In this document: piece by piece, positions 13,019 through 55,729 of the stretch | Position numbering within the stretch: the first letter of the stretch is position 1 | How the letters are laid out: each line of letters begins with the position of its first letter | Origin: Escherichia phage vB_EcoM_EP57 | DNA length: 64,000 bases | Reading direction: 5' to 3' (one strand) | Sequence record: OR544956 | The notes under the pieces: model-generated | What the model was told of the DNA's origin: nothing | The model's input: only the letters and a program-made list of their open reading frames with translations | Databases searched by the model: none | Made by a program: the position numbers and the translations under genes

Positions 13019-13498
13019 TTAGTCCTTCTTGACTTTAACGCCCATTGCGCCTATACTCAAACCTTTAAGAACGCCGTCTTTACGAGCTTGATATAATTCA
13101 GGGTCGTTGAATTGGATTTTAACGAGGGGAGTTCCTTCCACAACGAGTTCGTCACCAATGTAACAATCGACTTCATTTACCCAAGCTTTAATTGGAGAAA
13201 ACTTATCGGTGTTCTTCATGTGACCAAGATTACCACTAATGTTGGTAATATTCTCATTGAAGTTGTCAACCATCTTCCTGATTTCCAAATCAGACATGCG
13301 CTCTCCGTGGAGATCGTCTTCTTCAGGTGGACAATACAAGACCTCAATAACCTGCATCTTTTCTTCATCAAATTTATTTTGTTTGACTAGAGTTTCAGGT
13401 TTTTGAGATGGTATAGAATCTTGTTGGGATTCAGAATTCTCTTTAAAACCAGCGAAGGTTTTGAAGAGTTCCCACAGTGTATCTTTATTGAGTTCCAT
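13019..13498 (-). CDS. putative prohead protease
   Basis: 159 aa between portal and scaffold genes; weak XkdF-like resemblance. Confidence 0.3.
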   Translation of the reverse strand: MELNKDTLWELFKTFAGFKENSESQQDSIPSQKPETLVKQNKFDEEKMQVIEVLYCPPEEDDLHGERMSDLEIRKMVDNFNENITNISGNLGHMKNTDKFSPIKAWVNEVDCYIGDELVVEGTPLVKIQFNDPELYQARKDGVLKGLSIGAMGVKVKKD

Positions 13499-13591
13499 TT
13501 GAAACCTCTTAAAAACAGATATCCCATAAATCTTAGTCTACAGGATATTTGTTGTTTTGTCAATAGAAAAATTAAAAAATATTAAATATTT

Positions 13592-15157
13592 TTAATTCGA
13601 CAGGTTTTGTGCTGAAGGATCTAAAGCAGAAACAGTATCAGACGTTCCAGTTCCCGCTGTAGCTAAACCGTCTCCTGATCGTGAAGTTTTGTCAGGCATA
13701 TAGTTATCCATGAATTCAAAGAATTTCTCTTTATTGGCAACAATATCGTCAGGGATACGATATTCAAAACCAATTTTTTCAAGGAACTCGTTAATAACTT
13801 CTGGGGTTAAAGGTATTGCACCAGAGGCTACCAACTGCTGAATAGCTTTAGCATTTACTTCAATATCAGGATCACCCATTTCACCACTGACAAACTTAGG
13901 CATATCTTCATCAGAAAGGAAGATATTGTTTAGTCGTAGTGTTTGAGGGATCAGTTGAGAGTTTATAGCTTCTACAACAATATCTACATCTCGCTCAATA
14001 AAATGAGACAATAGTGTTTGTTTGTTGTCAGAAAGCGCAAAACTTCCTGCATCACCATCACCCATAATCAACACACCCGCACCAAAACGGTTATAAATAT
14101 CTAGCTTGCGTTGTTTGATTAGTGCTTGAGTGTCAAACTGTTTACCCGTGCCATCAACACCTTGGAATACAAGATCGTATTGACGCATCACTGTGCCTTC
14201 ATAAACGTCTGAAGGCAATACCATGTAGGCTTGCTCCCCAGAGTGCAGGTTAGCGATGTTGGCTTGAAGAACTCGAAGAGATTGTGCTTCATCCCCAGCA
14301 GGATCTAAAGATGCCCTGTTTAGAATGTCACTTGGAACCTTAAGAACTGGCATACCACCTAAATCTTTAGATACCCCAATAACCTCAAATTCCTGAATAA
14401 GAGATTTTTCACGCCAGCTACGATATACAGCTAAAAGCGGACTAACTCCTAGTGGGTTATTCTCTGTAATGTTGCTACCAACAAATAAAACTTTACTGAA
14501 AGGAATTTCTTTAATACCAGTTTCTAAAGTTGTATTACCTGGAGCTAACATCGTATTGGTGATATTCTGGTTAACAGATAGAATAGAACGTCCGTCTGCC
14601 GAATATGTAAAAGGTTGAGCCATGTGAAGAGTGTCTTGTGGTCTAAAAGCCAGTTTGGTTAATCGCCAATACCCAAAGTAAGGACTTTTAGGATCTTCAT
14701 CCAACTCATAAACTTTCTCTGCGAATGCAAAACCATATTGCTTATATGTCAAAAGTGATCTAACATATTGACGTAGAGGGGCTTGCATATTGCGTAACAT
14801 GTAATCAATAAACTTAGCAGCTTTTCTTGACTTTGCCGAGTTTACATTGTATTTTATCTTGAAATCAAAGAATGCTCTATCTACAAAGATATATGTAGCG
14901 TCAAGAGCAGTAGCTACATCAGGGTCTTCACCCATCTCTTTAAAAGTGCGAATACATTCTGGGAAACGAGTCTCATAAGGTTGCATGAAATTCGTAAATG
15001 CTTTGATTGAGTTTAATCCGATCGTTCCTATTTCAGGTGACAGGAGTAACGTTTTCTCTTTCTCTGCCTCTTTTGTTGGAGAGAGAGCAGCTTTATTTGC
15101 AGCACCTTTGTCCCAGTATTCTGACTTTTTAGTGTACGTTCTTTTTCCTGTTGACAC
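13592..15157 (-). CDS. portal protein
   Basis: 521 aa; GTG start with GGAGGA RBS; directly downstream of large terminase. Confidence 0.6.
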   Translation of the reverse strand: MSTGKRTYTKKSEYWDKGAANKAALSPTKEAEKEKTLLLSPEIGTIGLNSIKAFTNFMQPYETRFPECIRTFKEMGEDPDVATALDATYIFVDRAFFDFKIKYNVNSAKSRKAAKFIDYMLRNMQAPLRQYVRSLLTYKQYGFAFAEKVYELDEDPKSPYFGYWRLTKLAFRPQDTLHMAQPFTYSADGRSILSVNQNITNTMLAPGNTTLETGIKEIPFSKVLFVGSNITENNPLGVSPLLAVYRSWREKSLIQEFEVIGVSKDLGGMPVLKVPSDILNRASLDPAGDEAQSLRVLQANIANLHSGEQAYMVLPSDVYEGTVMRQYDLVFQGVDGTGKQFDTQALIKQRKLDIYNRFGAGVLIMGDGDAGSFALSDNKQTLLSHFIERDVDIVVEAINSQLIPQTLRLNNIFLSDEDMPKFVSGEMGDPDIEVNAKAIQQLVASGAIPLTPEVINEFLEKIGFEYRIPDDIVANKEKFFEFMDNYMPDKTSRSGDGLATAGTGTSDTVSALDPSAQNLSN

Positions 15158-18326: not shown

Positions 18327-18623
18327 TTAGATTACGATCTTTTTAGGAACGTCATCTGTATTCTGCACGGCAGGGGTTTCTTCTTCCATAGCTTCATAAT
18401 GTTCTTCTAACCATTCTTCTACTTGCTCTTTAATAGCTTTAGCTGCTTGGAAGCGGAGAGGTTTTGCTGCATCCTTATCATTAACAAGTTCAACAATATA
18501 CCGCATAGCTTCTAAATAATGCTCTGCAAATAATTCTTTTACACTTGCTTGCGCCGCATCCATTGCGTAAATCTGTTGCATTTCGGCTGTTGGTCTTCCA
18601 CGACCACGTTTTAGTTTAGGCAT
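18327..18623 (-). CDS. hypothetical DNA-binding protein
   Basis: 98 aa; N-terminal KRGRGRP AT-hook-like motif; acidic C-terminus. Confidence 0.35.
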   Translation of the reverse strand: MPKLKRGRGRPTAEMQQIYAMDAAQASVKELFAEHYLEAMRYIVELVNDKDAAKPLRFQAAKAIKEQVEEWLEEHYEAMEEETPAVQNTDDVPKKIVI

Positions 18624-18690
18624 AATAAAATCCTCCTAAACTTTATCTTAACATATAAAAAATAATAAGTCAAGTTTTATTCAATAGATA

Positions 18691-18714
18691 GCAAAAAGCC
18701 TCCAATAAGGAGGC
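18691..18714 (-). terminator. terminator at the downstream end of the tRNA array
   Basis: Perfect 7-bp stem agcctcc/ggaggct, loop aataa, then TTTT on minus strand. Confidence 0.4.
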
Positions 18715-18830
18715 TAATAAATACTGTTAAGTTGAAATGCTTTATTATAATTGTGCGTTAAGGAGTCGCACCCCTCCATCTTAGAAGGAACCAGGCAAGG
18801 TCTTCAAAGATACCGCTGGCAAGCGATATT

Positions 18831-18909
18831 TGGAGGCGGGAATTGGATTTGAACCAATGATCTCCAGCATATGAAACTGGCGAGGACGACCAGACTCCTC
18901 TATCCCGCT
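18831..18909 (-). tRNA. tRNA-Met (anticodon CAT), 1-72 pair unpaired
   Basis: Hand-folded cloverleaf; T-loop TTCAAAT; anticodon loop TTCATAT; CCA encoded; A1 opposite C72. Confidence 0.55.
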
Positions 18910-18915
18910 ATTATG

Positions 18916-18985
18916 TATCCCGTGCTGGATTCGAACCAGCATCACAATAAGCTGTGGAACTCTTATCCTGTAAGTCTAACGGGAA
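18916..18985 (-). tRNA. tRNA-like element, non-canonical anticodon arm (possible pseudo-tRNA)
   Basis: Canonical T-arm GCTGG-TTCGAAT-CCAGC and 6-bp acceptor stem, but no 5-bp stem with 7-nt loop can be formed; no CCA. Confidence 0.3.
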
Positions 18986-18987
18986 AC

Positions 18988-19061
18988 TGGTTGTTTCGAC
19001 AAGAATCGAACTTGTGTCTCACGATTATCAGTCGTGGGTTCTACCATTGAACTACGAAACA
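18988..19061 (-). tRNA. tRNA-Ile (anticodon GAT)
   Basis: Hand-folded; anticodon stem CACGA/TCGTG, loop CTGATAA; CCA encoded. Confidence 0.65.
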
Positions 19062-19067
19062 TTAAAT

Positions 19068-19144
19068 TGGTCGGAATTGCAGGATTCGAACCTGCGACCC
19101 TACGCTCCCAAAGCGTATGCTCTACCAAACTGAGCTAAATTCCG
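19068..19144 (-). tRNA. tRNA-Pro (anticodon TGG)
   Basis: Hand-folded; D-stem GCTC/GAGC; loop TTTGGGA; T-loop TTCGAAT; CCA encoded. Confidence 0.65.
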
Positions 19145-19237
19145 TCATAACATTCTAAAGGTACACCGCAAAAGAAAGTGTTCGGCGGCTCCTCGTTTTT
19201 AACTTCACACTTGAGGTAGTGACTCACCTTTGTTATA

Positions 19238-19313
19238 TGGCTGGTCTGTCTGGATTTGAACCAAACCTACGACAGTCAAAGTGTCGTGTGCTACCGGACT
19301 ACACTACAAACCA
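19238..19313 (-). tRNA. tRNA-Gln (anticodon TTG)
   Basis: Hand-folded; anticodon stem CGACA/TGTCG, loop CTTTGAC; CCA encoded. Confidence 0.65.
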
Positions 19314-19411
19314 ATAAATCATTTAATGAAGGGCAACCAGAAGAGGTGTGAGAGAAGGAGAAAACCATGAGTAAAAGAGAAAGTTTTCTGGCAACCCTTT
19401 ATTAAATAATT

Positions 19412-19485
19412 TGGAGCGTTCTACGAGGATCGAACTCGTGCCGCCGACTTGGAAGGACGGAATGCTACCGCTACACCAAGAACGC
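19412..19485 (-). tRNA. tRNA-Gly (anticodon TCC)
   Basis: Hand-folded; loop CTTCCAA; one U-U mismatch in anticodon stem; CCA encoded. Confidence 0.6.
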
Positions 19486-19493
19486 CCTACATC

Positions 19494-19523
19494 TTTACTA
19501 TACTACATTTTACTATTGGTTGT
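19494..19523 (-). promoter_or_regulatory. sigma70-like promoter upstream of tRNA-Gly
   Basis: Minus strand AACTATTGACAA, 18-nt spacer, TATAGT. Confidence 0.4.
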
Positions 19524-19801
19524 CAATAGTTTTATTGAGTGGGACAGTGACGAGTATCCCGTTGGGTGACTAGCCCTACGTTCGGTAAGCTAACTTAAAA
19601 TAATACAAAACCAAAGTCAAATATTATTCTTCGTTGCTGTCGATGGGAGAGCCGCTTCTCATTTTGCCCCATCCAACCCTACTCCGGTCAAGTTTCGGGT
19701 AACTCTTTTTGTGTGATCAACACAATACTAAGAACACTGTCTTTCGAACAGACCTTGTGCACAGGATACGACGATCAATCACAGTGCTCTTAATGTTGTG
19801 T

Positions 19802-19876
19802 TGGTGCTCCCACACTGAATCGAACAGAGATCCACGGATTACAAAACCGTTGTAATAGCCATTATACTATAGGAGC
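19802..19876 (-). tRNA. tRNA-Thr (anticodon TGT)
   Basis: Hand-folded; loop TTTGTAA; T-loop TTCGATT; CCA encoded; one mismatch at 31-39. Confidence 0.55.
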
Positions 19877-19882
19877 AAAGCT

Positions 19883-19959
19883 GGGACTCGGCAGGATTCG
19901 ATACCTGCAATTCCAGAAGCCTCTTGGCGACTGGGGGTTTACCTTAACTCTACAAGTCC
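19883..19959 (-). tRNA. tRNA-like element, non-canonical (8-nt T-loop, no standard anticodon arm)
   Basis: 7-bp acceptor stem GGACTTG/CGAGTCC; T-loop TATCGAAT; central region forms an irregular hairpin; no CCA. Confidence 0.3.
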
Positions 19960-19966
19960 ATAATTC

Positions 19967-20052
19967 TGGCGATGAGTATAGGATTTGAACCTATATCGTT
20001 CTTTCGAACACGGATTAACAGTCCGCCGCTTAAACCATTCAGCCAACTCATC
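19967..20052 (-). tRNA. class II (Ser-type) tRNA with anticodon GTT
   Basis: 86 nt; Ser-like D-arm TG-GCT-GAATGGTTTA-AGC; anticodon arm GCGGA-CTGTTAA-TCCGT; 15-nt variable arm with GTTC/GAAC stem; G73; CCA. Confidence 0.5.
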
Positions 20053-20058
20053 TTAATT

Positions 20059-20146
20059 TGGTGGTGAGTGATGGAGTTGAACCACCCGAATCGCAATGAT
20101 AACAGATTTACAGTCTGCCCCGCTACCCCTACGGAATTAACTCACC
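20059..20146 (-). tRNA. tRNA-Tyr (anticodon GTA)
   Basis: 88 nt class II; anticodon arm GCAGA-CTGTAAA-TCTGT; T-loop TTCAACT; CCA. Confidence 0.65.
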
Positions 20147-20224
20147 TAAATACTAATATTTAAATTCTTTTTAAAATAGCCAGTGTTCACACCACTAACT
20201 ATGTAAGCCATATTAAAAAGAACT

Positions 20225-20310
20225 TGGCGGTAGATGTAGGACTCGAACCTACACGCCGTTTCCGACTACAGTTTAGCAAACTGTCGTGGCTACCATTTCA
20301 CCAATCTACC
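20225..20310 (-). tRNA. tRNA-Ser (anticodon GCT)
   Basis: 86 nt class II; anticodon arm ACAGT-TTGCTAA-ACTGT; G73; CCA. Confidence 0.65.
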
Positions 20311-20315
20311 TAATC

Positions 20316-20406
20316 TGGCGGAAGGAGGGAGAGTCGAACTCCCAAGGCTCTTTCAAGCTCGGCGGTTTTCAAGACCGTTTTCGTCGCCACGTCGATTTGC
20401 CCTTCC
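20316..20406 (-). tRNA. tRNA-Ser (anticodon TGA), D-arm degenerate
   Basis: 91 nt; anticodon arm CGGT-CTTGAAA-ACCG; variable-arm hairpin GCTT-GAAA-GAGC; G73; CCA; D region lacks U8 and a regular stem. Confidence 0.5.
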
Positions 20407-20640
20407 ATACTTATAATCTAACATAAAATAATGTTTGTTGTCAATAGTTTTTTAAAACATTTTACCATGAATGGTGACTCCACCAACCCCCGTTCTCCAC
20501 GAACGGTGCTCTTCGAGCATTTATGTCTTCTAATATAACCGTGGCCTTTGTTTATAATGTCTGACATACTTGCCTCATTCTCTGCCACCATGATCAGTAG
20601 TGGGTTCAAATTACTTGAGCTAATTCATGTTAAAATGTTC

Positions 20641-20715
20641 TGGTGTCTTTACAAGGAATCGAACCTTGACTAAGAGTTTAGAAGACTCCTGTGCTATCCA
20701 TTACACCATAAAGAC
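20641..20715 (-). tRNA. tRNA-Arg (anticodon TCT)
   Basis: Hand-folded; anticodon arm GGAGT-CTTCTAA-ACTCT; CCA. Confidence 0.65.
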
Positions 20716-20717
20716 GT

Positions 20718-20792
20718 TGGTGGCCCTGGCTGGTTTCGATCCAGCTACCTATCGGTTATGAGCCGACAGCTCTCCCATTGAGCTACAGGGCC
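20718..20792 (-). tRNA. tRNA-Met or tRNA-Ile2 (anticodon CAT)
   Basis: Hand-folded; D-stem GCTC/GAGC; anticodon arm GTCGG-CTCATAA-CCGAT; T-loop ATCGAAA; CCA. Confidence 0.6.
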
Positions 20793-21038
20793 ATAAATGT
20801 GGTAACAGAGACGCTGACGATTGTAGAGAACCGCTACATTCTCTAAGACCAAGCCCAACTTTCAGCGTAAAAGTTCTTGAGCCGAGACTGTTCCTTTTCC
20901 TCTTTGGTAGCTAACCTCTGAAGAAGTAGTCTCTAACACTACCGCAGTGCAAGCCCCTCTTAACAAAAGTCAACGACACTGTTACCACACTTGATGAACG
21001 TATCCTAACATATGAAGGATACGTTTGTCAATAGTTAT

Positions 21039-21287
21039 TTAAGCATATTCTGCTACTTCTTCACTATCTTTCTTTTCCAGAAGAGCAACAACCAAAGCTT
21101 CTGCGTTAAAAGTATTAATTTCAAGATCCATCTCTCGCATCAGAGCCAAGAAATCAATAACTTTAACATCTTTAGTGATTACAATAGAAGTTGTACCATT
21201 GTTTTCAGATGTGTATTTTTCTGGATGGAAAAGAAAAACTGCATTGCCGTTACCATCTTCAAACACGTGTTTTTCTAATAGAGACAT
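21039..21287 (-). CDS. hypothetical protein
   Basis: ORF track 82 aa; first leftward gene block. Confidence 0.3.
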   Translation of the reverse strand: MSLLEKHVFEDGNGNAVFLFHPEKYTSENNGTTSIVITKDVKVIDFLALMREMDLEINTFNAEALVVALLEKKDSEEVAEYA

Positions 21288-21295
21288 TGTTCCTC

Positions 21296-21547
21296 CTAAT
21301 CTGTTAGTTGTTCGTCCTCTACCAAGTTTGACACGAGAACGTCTGTTATATATTGATGCTGATAAACCCTTTCGGGACTATCATCAAAAGCCAAACCTGT
21401 GCAAATAGAACAGAGGTCTGATTCCTTGATGACTCCATTTTTATCACGTCTGGAGTGGTTTGTCAAATGCCTATTACAAGCACGGCACCTAAAATAAAAG
21501 CTATTTTGCATATATCCTTCGAACCCCAAATGGGGAGTGATCGGCAT
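21296..21547 (-). CDS. hypothetical zinc-ribbon protein
   Basis: 83 aa with CRACN...CSIC cysteine pairs. Confidence 0.3.
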   Translation of the reverse strand: MPITPHLGFEGYMQNSFYFRCRACNRHLTNHSRRDKNGVIKESDLCSICTGLAFDDSPERVYQHQYITDVLVSNLVEDEQLTD

Positions 21548-21584
21548 CTCCTCACTTCTAGTTTAGCACGAAGGATATCTTAAG

Positions 21585-21782
21585 TCAACTAGGAATAATT
21601 TTATCCCTTTTGGTTTCATAACCAGTCCAATCTAAATCCTCCCAGCCTTCATCATCGTCTAACACATTGTCATCATCATAAGATGCAATGTTATAAATAG
21701 AACGTGGATTACAAGACATACAATCTTTAATAGGCACATGATGCCATTTGCACGGATTCTCACTAATCATTGCACACCTCAT
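21585..21782 (-). CDS. hypothetical protein
   Basis: 65 aa, Cys-rich N-terminus, acidic C-terminus. Confidence 0.3.
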   Translation of the reverse strand: MRCAMISENPCKWHHVPIKDCMSCNPRSIYNIASYDDDNVLDDDEGWEDLDWTGYETKRDKIIPS

Positions 21783-22192
21783 CTATAGATCAAGTATTAT
21801 TTATAATAATTTATTATTTTATTTTTAATTGATAGAAGTTGATCTGTACGTACCAGTTCTGATACACTGTACCTGTTTGTTAGATCTAATAATTATTTAT
21901 TATTAATATTTAATAATTATTAATCTAGTACGGAGTACAGTACTTGAGTACAGAGTACTACATCAACGACCTAAAACCTTAACTCGCTGCGCTCGTTAAT
22001 AGATTTCTAGGGTAACATACTTCGAACACAAAAGTCAAGAGTTTTATTAAAAATTATTTTCTGTGTGCAAAAACCTTGCTTAAACAGGTAGCAATAGTAT
22101 TAAGAGGCTGTAGAGCAAGTTTACTTACTAGGTAAGGTGATTTATCATCTTATATATAAAAAGTGCGTCAGAGACGCGTTTAGGAGGCTAGA

Positions 22193-22609
22193 ATGAGATT
22201 TACAAGACAAGAGGTAGTTGTACTTGACGAAGCAATGACAATGATCGTCTTTTACTATGAGGATATCTTCTGTGCAGCATATCATTTAAATGATATTCAG
22301 ATTGAATGGAAGCAGATAGCATTCCTGTTGGACAAGAGTAATCATTTGGATGGCTTTGAGTATTTGGAGTGGGATGGTGCAAAGGAAGTTAAAATTGTAG
22401 GGTTAAATCACGATCAGATTGTTGACATGCAATGTAAGTTGTGTCATTATCAGTTCTCAAACAATCCTGGCAACAATTGTTCTGATTTTTGCCATGTGTG
22501 TGGTTCACGATGTTCTGGTAAGCTACTTTTGAAGACACAAGATGTGTCCTACAGCCGTGTTACGCTTACTGGCGACCATACCCCAATCATGGAGTACGTA
22601 AAGAAATGA
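22193..22609 (+). CDS. hypothetical Cys-rich protein
   Basis: 138 aa; GGAGG RBS; first rightward gene. Confidence 0.4.
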   Translation: MRFTRQEVVVLDEAMTMIVFYYEDIFCAAYHLNDIQIEWKQIAFLLDKSNHLDGFEYLEWDGAKEVKIVGLNHDQIVDMQCKLCHYQFSNNPGNNCSDFCHVCGSRCSGKLLLKTQDVSYSRVTLTGDHTPIMEYVKK

Positions 22610-23409
22610 GCAACTATCCAATTACAGGCGTAACCTATTCTTGTGTAGCAAAAGGTGGTTTATATACAGTAGTGGAATTTCCAAAACCTGCCGGAATATC
22701 TAAAGTGTTTGATCCTGTGGTTATCTATGAAGATCTTAGAACAGGTCAACGTTACTGGAGATTTGTGAATGACTTTTTAGATCGTATGGAGGTAGTAAGT
22801 GGCGAAAACACCGAAGAAGTTATCAAAGCCAACGTTACTAAGAAACCGAAAAACGAGGTTCTCAAAGTAGCCAAATCAGTTCCTAAGAAAGATAAATTTG
22901 ATACGGAGGCATTCGTCTTTGACACACCAATCGAGAAGATTGAAGAAGCGTTGCAACGTCTTGAGGAGCAGGAGGCAGATCCAATGGCTGAACCACTCGC
23001 TGAAGCAAAAAACATTGGTCGTTCCAATGAAACAACACCAGAAGAACAAGCTGAACTTGAAGCTTTTGCCAAATGGACAAAACAGTTAAAGAATGGCTAT
23101 TATAAAACAAAAGAAGAAGCTGAAAACCATGTTCCTTCCACACCAATGAAATGCCAGGATTATAAAGATTATCCTGAAAGGGTTGTGTTCCCTGGTTATG
23201 CACAATACAAACTGAACGGGTTACGTTCTATGATTAACATGAAAGGAGAGTGTTTATCAAAAGCTGGGGAAGTGTACAACCTGCCACCTCATTGGAAAGG
23301 TATTCCAAACTTTATTAGTGAAGTTGTTGGTCATCCTCTTGATGGTGAAGTGTTTGCTGGGTTAGGTGTCCTTAGTCTGCAACAAATTAACAGTGCTTGC
23401 AGTAGTTGA
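22606..23409 (+). CDS. ATP-dependent ligase-like nucleotidyltransferase, N-terminal part (frame-interrupted)
   Basis: Motif I-like KLNGLR and motif III-like HPLDGEVF near the C-terminus; ORF ends soon after. Confidence 0.4.
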   Translation: MSNYPITGVTYSCVAKGGLYTVVEFPKPAGISKVFDPVVIYEDLRTGQRYWRFVNDFLDRMEVVSGENTEEVIKANVTKKPKNEVLKVAKSVPKKDKFDTEAFVFDTPIEKIEEALQRLEEQEADPMAEPLAEAKNIGRSNETTPEEQAELEAFAKWTKQLKNGYYKTKEEAENHVPSTPMKCQDYKDYPERVVFPGYAQYKLNGLRSMINMKGECLSKAGEVYNLPPHWKGIPNFISEVVGHPLDGEVFAGLGVLSLQQINSACSS

Positions 23410-23869
23410 AGATTATGGTCTTGATGAGCTTATTTGTGTAGTTCATACAGAGTATATTGAAAACCAAGAACAGTTTGATGCTTTCTATGAAAAAGCTTTA
23501 CTTGAGAAAGCTGAAGGTGTAGTATATCGTAATGCTCACGGAGTTTACGAATTTGATAAACGTTCTTATGACGTTATTAAACGTAAGCCTCGCCATACGC
23601 TTGAAGTTAAAGTAATAAATTCAAAAAGTGATAAAAATGGCGATGGAGTGTTGACAGGTGAGATGGAAAATGGTAAAGTAGTCGAATTCTTAATGCGTAA
23701 AGATGCTCATGAGACTATCAATTATCGTAAAGCAGAGAATGCTTCTACCTTGATTAATCAGTTCGTTGAAATAGAGTATGAAGAATTTTCAGATGAAGGT
23801 ATTCCAACAAAACCTGTTGGTGTTCGTATTCGAGAAATGATCCCAGGCACTTGGGAACCAGCAGAATAA
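23366..23869 (+). CDS. ATP-dependent ligase-like protein, C-terminal part (+1 frame)
   Basis: Motif IV-like EGVVYR and motif V-like VIKRKP; overlaps upstream ORF by 44 nt. Confidence 0.4.
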   Translation: MSLVCNKLTVLAVVEDYGLDELICVVHTEYIENQEQFDAFYEKALLEKAEGVVYRNAHGVYEFDKRSYDVIKRKPRHTLEVKVINSKSDKNGDGVLTGEMENGKVVEFLMRKDAHETINYRKAENASTLINQFVEIEYEEFSDEGIPTKPVGVRIREMIPGTWEPAE

Positions 23870-26069: not shown

Positions 26070-27176
26070 ATTTTAATTAAGCCTGAAGATCTTCATTTAT
26101 ATGTCAACGAAGAAACAATAGCTGCAATTGATTATGATCAGATCGCTTTCCAAGCAGCGTCTGCATTAGAGAAAAGAACAATCATTGCAAAGCACATCCC
26201 TTCAGGTGCTCAAAAGGAATTTAAAAATAAGACAGAGTTTTGGGGTAAAAGCAAGACTAAGATTGGAGGTTGGCTAGGAGATACAAATGCAGAAAGAGCC
26301 TCCAAAAACAAACGTCCCTTCACAAAGGAAGAGTTCGAAATCATTGATAAGCAATACCCGCCAGAAGATATCGGACACACCTTCCAAGCAGCTAAAACAA
26401 AAGTCTTAGGTATTCTAAAACATCTACGTTTAGAAAAATATTGCGGAGTTATTGGCGTAGGAAAAACTTTCAGACACGCCTTCAAAATGCCTGTAGAATA
26501 TAAATCTGAACGATTAGATATCAAACCACTTCAGCTTTCAGAAACCAAAGATTATCTTGTGGAGTTCCACAATGGTGATGTTGTTACTGTAATAGAAGCT
26601 GATGATGAGTTAGAGAAGTATGGTTTCCAAGGTTATAAAGATTATAAAAGGACGGGTAAATTTTCTTATATCGTTGTATCTATAGATAAAGATAGTTTAC
26701 ATACTCCTAGTATCCTTTTTAATTTCTACAAAGAGGATGGAGTATTTAAAAATCCAGATATAATTCTTATTGACGAGTCTATTGGCGATATATGGATCGT
26801 AGATAAAGGTAAAAAGAAAGAAGTTAAAGGTTGGGGCAGTTACTGGTTAGCATATCAGATGCTAATGGGAGATAAAACAGATAGTATCCGACCTTATCAA
26901 GATTTTGATATTAAGTTCGGAGATATTACTTGTTTTAATCTTCTTTCAGCTTGTAAAACTCAAGCAGAACTTTTCCAAACAGTTAAAGACACTTACTACT
27001 CATGGTTCCCAGAGGGTGTTAATTTTACTTCTTGGGATGGAGAAGAAGTCCATATGACAACAGATGAATGGATAGAAACAATTTTCCAGTTGGTATACAT
27101 GAAACGCTGGGATAATGACGATACAACATTTGAGAGTATGCTTCAGTCATACATCTCGCAACAGGAGGCAGAGTGA
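26070..27176 (+). CDS. 5'-3' exonuclease / flap endonuclease (T4 RNase H-like); start codon uncertain
   Basis: Frame open from 26046 with IDYDQIA and GDKTDSIRP motifs; first in-frame ATG only at 26487. Confidence 0.45.
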   Translation: MLIKPEDLHLYVNEETIAAIDYDQIAFQAASALEKRTIIAKHIPSGAQKEFKNKTEFWGKSKTKIGGWLGDTNAERASKNKRPFTKEEFEIIDKQYPPEDIGHTFQAAKTKVLGILKHLRLEKYCGVIGVGKTFRHAFKMPVEYKSERLDIKPLQLSETKDYLVEFHNGDVVTVIEADDELEKYGFQGYKDYKRTGKFSYIVVSIDKDSLHTPSILFNFYKEDGVFKNPDIILIDESIGDIWIVDKGKKKEVKGWGSYWLAYQMLMGDKTDSIRPYQDFDIKFGDITCFNLLSACKTQAELFQTVKDTYYSWFPEGVNFTSWDGEEVHMTTDEWIETIFQLVYMKRWDNDDTTFESMLQSYISQQEAE

Positions 27177-54547: not shown

Positions 54548-54746
54548 GACTAGGATTCATAGCAAAAGCTTTGAAAGTTGTTATATCATGACTAACATTA
54601 AAACTAACACCTTTTACTTTCTCTAGTATTTGAACTTTCGTCTCTCCGTCCCACGGTAGGATGATAACACCATCTTCTGTGATCAACCACCAATGGTTCT
54701 CTCCATCTCGTGAATCTTTTGCTTTGTATAGAAAATTGGAACTCAT
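54531..54746 (-). CDS. hypothetical protein
   Basis: 71 aa; RBS GGAGGA; promoter-like TTGACA upstream. Confidence 0.35.
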   Translation of the reverse strand: MSSNFLYKAKDSRDGENHWWLITEDGVIILPWDGETKVQILEKVKGVSFNVSHDITTFKAFAMNPSLVAEW

Positions 54747-55106
54747 TCTTCCTCCTGTTCGGTATTATTCACTTGTGAGACACAATGTAACACAAGCTTT
54801 GTGAGTTTGTCAAGGATCTAATTACATTCTACAGAAGAAGAGGGTTAATAACTATAGGAATAGTCTTACTATAGGTGCAATACTAGTTAAGAGTTAGATT
54901 GATAGGTAAGACTTATCTTAAACAGATAATTGATAGGTGAATCAGCATTGACTTTTTCAAAAAAATATGGTACCCTAAACATATGTTTACGAGCGATAGC
55001 GAGTAGTAGATTTCTATATAATAATGTTTCATGTTACTCACGATAGTGAGGTATGAAACGTAAGTGAAGGTAGATAAACTATGATCATCTATCTACCATC
55101 TATTAA

Positions 55107-55316
55107 TCAATATAGATCTAATGTTAGACTAACAGTTATCCAACAAACAATAGCAGTCCATATAACAAGTAATGATCTACAAACTACATCCCATTCAAAT
55201 ACATTGTATGTTAACCATTCTCCCATCACAACAGAAGAACCCAACCAACATCCAACAATAACTATAATCCAATAAAAGAATCCTACAGTAGAGTATACAG
55301 CAAAAGCTTTTAACAT
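55107..55316 (-). CDS. small membrane protein
   Basis: 69 aa, strongly hydrophobic; ATG after GGAGGA overlapping upstream stop. Confidence 0.35.
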   Translation of the reverse strand: MLKAFAVYSTVGFFYWIIVIVGCWLGSSVVMGEWLTYNVFEWDVVCRSLLVIWTAIVCWITVSLTLDLY

Positions 55317-55729
55317 CTTTCCTCCAGAAGTTGTTCAACAGTTTGACGAGTATGATTGTCCCAGTAAACCTTAGTGAAGTCAAGAGTTCCTTGTTCGTTT
55401 CTCTTAGTTTCGAAGAAGTATCCGCCTTCTCTTTCTACTCTGTCTCTAATGTGCTCTATGAGGTGCTTTTTACAAGATGCTGATAAACAATAGTCATACT
55501 CCCCACGAAGCAATGCTATAGCTGCAAGTCTGTTATCACCAACTTGAGATATTGTCCAAGAAAGCATACTACCTTCTATACCTAAAGGTGTTTGTCGAAT
55601 GGAATATCCACCATGCCGACTGATAGAAATTATGGCAAGTGGTTCTCCTGTTAGAGATCTTCCTAATGCACCTTCTGTTGGACTTCCTTCAACAATACGT
55701 TTGAAAAAAGCTTTGATCTTACCTAACAT
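55310..55729 (-). CDS. hypothetical protein
   Basis: ORF track 139 aa. Confidence 0.35.
   Translation of the reverse strand: MLGKIKAFFKRIVEGSPTEGALGRSLTGEPLAIISISRHGGYSIRQTPLGIEGSMLSWTISQVGDNRLAAIALLRGEYDYCLSASCKKHLIEHIRDRVEREGGYFFETKRNEQGTLDFTKVYWDNHTRQTVEQLLEERC

Follow-up and report, generated by a model that had tools for sequence, protein, structure and literature searches.

A putative divergent promoter region with a clade-specific inverted promoter duplication at the gene-block junction of Escherichia phage vB_EcoM_EP57

The DNA analysed here, a 64,000-nucleotide stretch of Escherichia phage vB_EcoM_EP57 (OR544956; hereafter the window), contains one gap between opposed gene blocks that would represent the main divergent transcription-control region of the phage. 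It would combine pairs of sigma70-type promoters with a clade-specific inverted duplication of one promoter, P_R1, a reading to which we assign a probability of about 60%. Host sigma70 RNA polymerase would read both gene blocks outward from the gap. One pair of promoters (pair A) would consist of the leftward P_L2 and the rightward P_R1, which flank an A/T tract of UP-element length (A/T tract 1), and a second (pair B) of the leftward P_L and the rightward P_R2. Since the two pairs are interleaved, P_R1 and P_L point towards one another and should give overlapping transcripts. P_L would belong to a subfamily-specific promoter class, the transcripts of which open with an invariant hairpin that some protein presumably recognises. 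The inverted duplication of P_R1 would, in the phAPEC8 clade, have set a weak leftward copy of this promoter across a 44-bp pure-A/T core. The likeliest effect of the resulting palindrome would be to modulate the zone in which rightward and leftward transcription collide; a conserved signal in its own right is a less likely role. Promoter activity, start sites, interference and a role of the RNA hairpin are what we infer from sequence patterns. Most likely the region is largely ordinary in kind, that is, the principal divergent promoter region of the phage. What would be new here is the map of four promoters, the interpretation of the palindrome as a promoter duplication and a subfamily promoter class with a leader hairpin.

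The gap and its promoters

The window belongs to a Phapecoctavirus (Stephanstirmvirinae) and is, over positions 20500-23000, ~98% identical to the Escherichia phages SKA64, tuntematon and phAPEC8. A first-pass annotation had described about 400 bp of AT-rich non-coding DNA between opposed gene blocks, which is borne out: the non-coding DNA extends from 21771 to 22192 (422 bp) and is the sole gap between the leftward tRNA and structural block and the rightward DNA-metabolism block. Its G+C content is 30.8%, and 23% within 21781-21965, compared with 38.6% for the window. The leftward block most likely starts with ATG 21770, which is preceded by GAGGTG and agrees with the start annotated in relatives; it continues from the 61-aa gene (Table 1) through small genes and ten tRNAs (18831-20792) to the structural genes. 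From 22193 onwards, the rightward block encodes ligase, RdgC, ribonucleotide reductase and other proteins. Pfam and PHROG yielded no function and no DNA-binding family for either of the small proteins adjoining the gap. A synteny to Seunavirus via the 61-aa leftward protein was considered and rejected, as the matches were weak and sited away from any divergent junction. All relatives examined carry ~2.9 kb of small genes before the DNA ligase that are absent from the window (22193-23869), where the ligase itself is apparently split (22606-23409 and 23366-23869).

Close relatives are 92-96% identical through the gap, and for the phiWec subgroup a BLAST-level match is limited to its right half. 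Justusliebigvirus (VEcB and PD06-like contigs), Klebsiella FKP3, Citrobacter Tr1 and IMG/VR contigs were reached via the first rightward protein. The only annotation of the region in public records is one unexplained repeat_region. Both ends of the nieznany record (MN850598.1) fall inside this intergenic region and overlap each other. Its start copy is without 66 bp, comprising most of A/T tract 1 and P_R1, a discrepancy that stems either from a mixed population or from faulty assembly at A/T repeats.

A packaging signal or a physical genome end (pac, cos or terminal repeat), with which the first-pass annotation had proposed to compare the region, is very improbable at this site. The ~420-bp non-coding gap is similar in size to the terminal repeats of the subfamily (328-342 bp; 342 bp in BME3), and several public records start within a few kb of it. 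However, Schickermooser carries an exact direct repeat of 329 bp at both ends, ~54 kb from the junction and within ~1.8 kb of non-coding DNA, and this repeat has no match in the window. Thus, the physical ends of Phapecoctavirus lie outside the window and the proposed comparison falls away.

Table 1. Features of the gap and of the genes adjoining it (window coordinates)
Feature	Position	Strand	Description
First leftward gene	21585..21770	-	61 aa, phrog_26411; SD GAGGTG before ATG 21770
P_L2 -35 (predicted)	21788..21793	-	TTGATC; -10 TACAGT and start inside 38 bp lost at 21780|21781
A/T tract 1	21792..21834		pure A/T between the opposed P_L2 and P_R1 -35 hexamers
P_R1 (predicted)	21839..21868	+	TTGATC-N18-TGaTACACT; predicted start ~21875; score 10.5, rank 70 in window
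Long imperfect inverted repeat	21839..21970		~130 bp, centre 21904/21905; left arm P_R1, right arm its inverted copy
GTAC cluster	21846..21958		8 sites, starts 21846, 21850, 21869, 21928, 21935, 21940, 21948, 21955
A/T palindrome	21881..21926		TAGAT(C)TAATAATTATT ... AATAATTATTAATCTA, within pure-A/T run 21884-21927
Inverted P_R1 copy (putative)	21937..21966	-	TTGATG (21966-21961), N18, TACTGT (21942-21937); weak, score 7.1
Invariant box	21983..21995	-	CGAGCGCAGCGAG; ~7-20 nt downstream of predicted P_L start
P_L (predicted)	22009..22038	-	TTGACT (22038-22033), N18, TGtTACCCT (22017-22009); predicted start ~22002; score 11.1
Weaker rightward candidate promoter	22076..22103	+	TTGCTT-N16-TATTAA
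P_R2 (predicted)	22120..22148	+	TTTACT-N17-TATCAT; predicted start ~22155; score 9.0
First rightward gene, 5' UTR	22165..22192	+	hairpin GCGTC-AGA-GACGC (22165-22177), SD AGGAGG (22182-22187)
First rightward gene	22193..22609	+	138-aa ORF; joins two families, each encoded by its own small gene in relatives

Promoters were identified with a weight-matrix scan anchored on an invariant 13-mer (the box described below) in eight genomes from five Stephanstirmvirinae clades. As sigma70 promoters we regarded pairs of hexamers like TTGACA and TATAAT that are separated by 17 +/- 1 bp and have A at -11 and T at -7; on the scale of the matrix, the top 0.01% of sites score at least 10.6. P_L, P_R1 and P_R2 carry such hexamers at this spacing (scores in Table 1), with a TG extension in P_L and P_R1. 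The anchored scan recovered P_L and P_R1 in 8/8 genomes, the P_R1 equivalent always at the same anchored position, P_L2 in 7/8 (the window being the exception) and P_R2 in 5/8, while phAPEC8, phiWec188 and VEcB have no P_R2 site above the scan threshold. At equal anchored positions, the hexamers keep a fixed spacing of 17-18 bp in all five clades. A test for drift across the same genomes, again anchored on the invariant core, found hexamers and spacing kept and the spacers diverged. The conserved content of the region in five clades consists of four sigma70-type promoters in two interleaved back-to-back pairs. The divergent control region that had been proposed earlier stands with respect to sequence and conservation, given these promoters in five clades; the palindrome is not its conserved core.

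The phage plainly appears to use near-consensus sigma70 promoters; the strongest promoter sites of the window have the form TTGACA-N17-TAnnnT, lie in intergenic gaps and are oriented with the genes. A simple consensus scan of 21000-23000 detected no excess of promoter-like sites (9 versus 7.1 expected). Hexamers such as TACCCT and TACACT make weak -10 elements that rely on the TG extension, and P_R1, P_R2 and especially the inverted copy of P_R1 are imperfect promoters (10.5, 9.0 and 7.1). Conservation of promoters face to face is unusual, and in each pair one of the two could be something else. In the literature, we found no paper with mapped transcription starts for the subfamily Stephanstirmvirinae.

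In pair A, A/T tract 1 lies between the two -35 hexamers, whose plus-strand sequences are GATCAA (P_L2) and TTGATC (P_R1). The tract was found in every clade, measures 43-57 bp and has approximately the length of two adjacent UP elements. The back-to-back arrangement of P_L2 and P_R1 around a spacer of UP-element length explains why tract 1 is A/T-rich and why it has dyad symmetry. While P_L2 scores 10-12.9 in the seven other genomes of the five clades, no such site was found in the window. There, a 38-bp deletion at 21780|21781, unshared by any relative examined, removes its -10 and start site, and the alignments of relatives with full-length matches start only past this junction. With the P_L2 -10 deleted, the leftward block of this phage must rely on P_L. 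Further near-consensus leftward sigma70 sites occur in the tRNA cluster and among the neighbouring small genes (21588, 21031, 20444, 19526 and 18673). Dispersed as they are over the minus strand of 18600-21600, these sites imply that the leftward block is driven not from the junction alone. At another place in the window, a pure-A/T run (13562-13597) lies beside a strong leftward promoter-like site (13563), upstream of a 159-aa ORF (13019-13498).

P_L and P_R2 form the second back-to-back pair, around the A/T-rich stretch 22040-22075. The -35, the TG and the -10 of P_L are kept in all clades, its spacer has diverged, and the general form on the minus strand is TTGAC(A/T)-N17/18-TGnTACCCTAA, a consensus -35 with an extended -10. 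In FKP3, L019 and Tr1 the P_R2 site reads TTGACA/TTGACT-N17-TATCAT/TACCAT. The weaker rightward candidate at 22076..22103 is abutted by a window-specific deletion of 20 bp (22100|22101) and is missing the final T of its -10; phiWec188 has TTGTGT-N16-TGcTATAGT at this position. Between the facing predicted starts of P_R1 and P_L, the overlap amounts to ~93 bp in most clades and to ~128 bp in the phAPEC8 clade. Folding of the rightward leader (21960-22200) revealed no RNA structure (z = +0.5). The hairpin at 22165-22177, read on the minus strand together with a T-run, is the sole terminator-like site in 21000-23000. Inspection by eye shows GCTC...GAGC in its place in VEcB and Tr1, an apparent G-C to U-A change on both sides.

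The inverted repeat and its GTAC sites

The imperfect palindrome reported near 21905 was readily recovered: the strings TAGATCTAATAATTATTTATTATTAAT/ATTTAATAATTATTAATCTAGTA, quoted as its halves, are located at 21881-21930, and its arms (21887-21904 and 21905-21922, 18 nt each) are 89% complementary. Folded as single-stranded DNA, the palindrome reached z = -3.6, with 1 of 200 dinucleotide shuffles as good, and the palindrome score of the 44-nt A/T core was reached by 27 of 5,000 shuffles. The GTAC-rich strings given for its left side (GTACGTACCAG...ACACTGTACCTG, 21846-21875) and for its right side (GTACGGAGTACAGTACTTGAGTACAGAGTACTA, 21928-21960) are present as well. They had been taken for direct repeats flanking the palindrome, but an inverted arrangement describes them better. 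When the left half (21839-21904) was aligned to the right half (21905-21970) in reverse-complement orientation, the inverted symmetry reached into the G/C-containing flanks (matched by 3 of 2,000 shuffles; z = -4.0 for a 200-nt DNA fold), and by this alignment the strings are the two arms of one inverted P_R1 duplication. The inverted P_R1 copy would fire leftward into the A/T core from ~21930. The region holds two separate pure-A/T tracts, 21792-21834 and 21884-21927. A survey of ~145 kb, which combined the window with 81 kb of tuntematon, turned up just one more pure-A/T run of at least 36 bp, at 13562-13597.

The palindrome was found in 10/10 genomes of the phAPEC8 clade and is absent from the phiWec, Justusliebigvirus, FKP3 and Tr1 lineages, in which the promoters are retained. 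In Tr1, VEcB and phiWec188 a conserved (G)TTAGATC(T) is followed by the invariant box within ~30-45 bp; genomes of the phAPEC8 clade have the A/T palindrome together with five AGTAC repeats between these two elements. The palindrome has the look of an inverted promoter copy particular to this lineage, not of a conserved control element, and would represent a young, clade-limited inverted duplication of P_R1. In UP17 an inserted G removes the sole one-base bulge, by which the outer A/T arms become perfect; this loss of the bulge fits homogenisation of the palindrome as well as selection. UP17 and anhysbys also carry a tandem duplication of 7-9 bp (CCTTAAA/CCTTAAAA) just upstream of the invariant box, at ~21970-21980.

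Positioned exactly between the facing promoters, the palindrome might serve as a bidirectional intrinsic terminator or insulator, with an RNA hairpin that stops both convergent transcripts. We consider this improbable. The stem is purely A-U, without a G+C-rich base, and there is no U-run on either strand, so that the G+C-rich stem and the U-run of an intrinsic terminator are both lacking. In addition, the terminator scan did not report the palindrome, and other clades are missing it.

An alternative explanation is a transcription-activated replication origin of the T7/T4 type. P_R1 together with its inverted copy (or P_L) would fire into the 44-bp A/T palindrome, and the transcripts or the opened duplex would let a gp4-like primase-helicase and the phage DNA polymerase start bidirectional synthesis. 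Predicted promoters are found immediately upstream of the A/T core on both sides, both tracts of the region are among the three long pure-A/T runs, the cumulative GC skew has its minimum at ~22000, and genes for a primase/helicase and a DNA polymerase are present in the phage. Furthermore, indels are frequent in the region, and one public assembly is broken within it. However, the skew minimum falls precisely where gene orientation switches, and for rV5 every skew change was explained by gene orientation (PMC3606486). The palindrome is missing from sister clades that have the same replication genes: a promoter reading into an A/T element exists in the phAPEC8 clade, whereas the downstream A/T core is absent in the sister clades. 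The conserved A/T tract 1, in turn, is already explained as an UP-element spacer. As for an origin of the iteron/DnaA type, the A/T element itself is present, but the repeats are not iterons: their spacing is irregular, their arms are inverted and they are dispensable, having been mutated away in KKP 3954. DnaA, IHF and Fis sites showed no excess (one DnaA box with one mismatch versus 0.57 expected). A clustering of Dam sites was tried and rejected, with three GATC sites in the region and counts from 1 to 9 among clades; in the window, GATC occurs at expectation (279 versus 284). An origin at this site appears unlikely to us, and the comparison with origins proposed in the first-pass annotation finds no support beyond A/T richness and a skew minimum at the gene-orientation switch.

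GTAC is rare in this phage. The window contains 56 sites where 178-225 are expected, and 8 of these 56 lie within 110 bp (21846-21955); elsewhere in the ~145 kb there are never more than three per 120 bp. In relatives, two further GTACs lie inside the 38 bp missing from the window. The positions of the tetramers correspond between the two promoter copies: two lie within each spacer, with one or two more around the TACNNT -10. GTAC (0.31), CCGG and GGCC occur in the window at 0.30-0.37 of expectation, and CTGCAG, GGATCC and CAGCTG not at all, versus 9-15 expected. Such depletion of short palindromes is a signature of restriction avoidance. Since GTAC is avoided genome-wide, a retained cluster could mean function, and its persistence in 9/10 genomes of the clade could mean function rather than recent origin.

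If the cluster were functional, it might be an operator array: a regulator of the phAPEC8 clade would bind the GTAC sites, loop the bendable A/T DNA and switch pair A. Its sites would overlap the -10 of P_L2 and the spacer and -10 of P_R1, with a five-site array on the right. The density of the sites (8-10 GTACs in no more than 150 bp, against the genome level of 0.31 of expectation) and their overlap with core promoter elements agree with this idea, as does the presence of AGATCT/GATC motifs instead at comparable positions in the phiWec subgroup. The spacings, however, are irregular (4, 5, 7, 7 and 8 bp), no common longer motif was found, and neither of the adjoining small proteins matches a DNA-binding family. 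In KKP 3954, 7/10 GTACs of the cluster were changed by point mutation to differing sequences (GTAT, ATAC, TGAC and ATAT) with no new shared motif. In the 33 kb of this genome aligned to the window (2.35% divergence), 11/21 other GTACs were lost. That is, the loss in the cluster is close to the rate elsewhere in the genome, and the tetramers are thus individually dispensable. The promoter hexamers of KKP 3954 survive (the P_L2 -10 became TACAAT, and the right arm reads TTGATG ... TATTGT). In the clade genomes other than KKP 3954, substitutions strike GTACs about as often as chance, which is the neutral rate. We regard an operator array as doubtful and conclude that the GTACs would be passengers of a duplicated promoter sequence, not individually required. 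The loss in KKP 3954 looks as if this phage had recently been selected by a GTAC-specific restriction system. The AGTAC arrays may also resemble TrpR operators, but their spacing departs from that of the operator. The motif TTGCTTAA-N11-TAGTAT presumably resembles a T4 MotA-box middle promoter.

The invariant box

The 13-mer CTCGCT(G/T)CGCTCG, which reads CGAGCG-N-AGCGAG on the minus strand, is invariant in all clades compared and is followed, 12-15 bp on, by TAGGGTA, CA and GTCAA. Promoter and box together form a module with the pattern TTGACT-N17/18-TGnTACCCTAA-N8-16-CGAGCG-N1-2-AGCGAG. Further copies of this module were found in the window at 54948-55004 (plus strand), in tuntematon at 26351 and in related IMG/VR genomes (2-3 per genome). 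A looser first pattern drew unrelated contig families that share only the two short motifs; the stricter pattern matched only Stephanstirmvirinae-like contigs, in line with a rough estimate of ~3 chance families. In the 185 kb examined, no box without a promoter was found.

The RNA of the box probably folds as a hairpin, C-GA-GC-(GNA)-GC-GA-G, with tandem G.A mismatches. Among 12 distinct copies, the positions flanking the box were paired in 90% of cells, versus 77.5% in shuffles (0/500 as high) and 25-43% in slid controls, the hairpin model having been derived from the same related sequences as were used in this covariation test. Three flanking positions pair, and A-U and C-G alternate next to the box. 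Rfam 15 gave no match at E-values up to 1 in 20800-22700 or 54700-55400, and a literature search found no paper describing the CGAGCG-N-AGCGAG motif. The sequence CTCGCTGCGCTCG presumably resembles the pUC/ColE1 backbone near its origin, possibly a primosome site. The literature confirmed its occurrence in vector sequences and nothing more, and we rejected the likeness as coincidence, other phage copies carrying A or AT centrally and sitting before genes.

The second module copy of the window (TTGACT-N17-TGgTACCCTAA ... CGAGCGATAGCGAG) lies in a stretch without a convincing ORF (54948-55310, plus strand) and opposes the surrounding minus-strand genes. The sequence downstream of it is poor in G (27 in 230 nt). 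In KKP 3954 this second copy occurs as well, inside an unannotated gap of 361 bp. This stretch is a candidate non-coding or antisense RNA.

To us, the box hairpin would be the most interesting element within the gap. It is conceivable, if unlikely, that it acts as an undescribed promoter-proximal RNA signal that recruits a phage factor to the RNA or to RNA polymerase, like nut or put in antitermination or in the control of processing, with the palindrome serving in addition as a transcription-opened replication start in the phAPEC8 clade.

Significance and relation to known systems

Phages of the rV5, phi92 and phAPEC8 groups are widely used as therapy candidates. The four-promoter map with its predicted starts gives 5'-end mapping and engineering a direct target, and the subfamily promoter class marked by an invariant leader hairpin offers a further one. 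The palindrome matters less than its appearance suggests, and the GTAC pattern mainly documents the avoidance of restriction sites.

For rV5, bidirectional promoters were expected at the equivalent junction (genes 81|82), and a stringent search found none (PMC3606486). An early promoter with an UP element, AAAA(N3)TGTTGAC(N19)TATAAT, has been described in Certrevirus (PMC7344957). The region studied here resembles these rV5-type and Certrevirus arrangements in having predicted host-polymerase promoters with a near-consensus -35 and A/T-rich upstream DNA where gene blocks diverge. In contrast to them, it would have two interleaved pairs, with one rightward and one leftward promoter facing each other, and weak TACNNT -10 hexamers supplemented by TG.

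In coliphages 186 and P2, the promoters pR and pL are placed face to face and undergo transcriptional interference. The predicted promoters P_R1 and P_L are likewise convergent, ~90-130 bp apart and situated between opposed gene blocks. Unlike 186 and P2, the phage analysed here is a virulent 150-kb myovirus without a lysis/lysogeny decision, interference is something we infer only, and we know of no repressor for this region.

The primary origin of T7 consists of promoters 1.1A/1.1B and an A/T-rich stretch, and oriF and oriG of T4 of a promoter and an unwinding element. Comparable to these origins are the 44-bp pure-A/T stretch within ~10 bp of a predicted promoter start and the T7-like primase-helicase. 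The A/T palindrome differs from them in being confined to a single clade, and the skew signal is confounded by transcription.

Lambdoid phages carry promoter-proximal RNA signals, namely nut boxB and the put sites of HK022. Similar to these, the invariant box would place a short invariant hairpin at the very start of long transcripts, at few promoters per genome. In contrast to boxB with its GNRA-like pentaloop, the predicted hairpin has a stem with tandem G.A pairs and a GNA loop.
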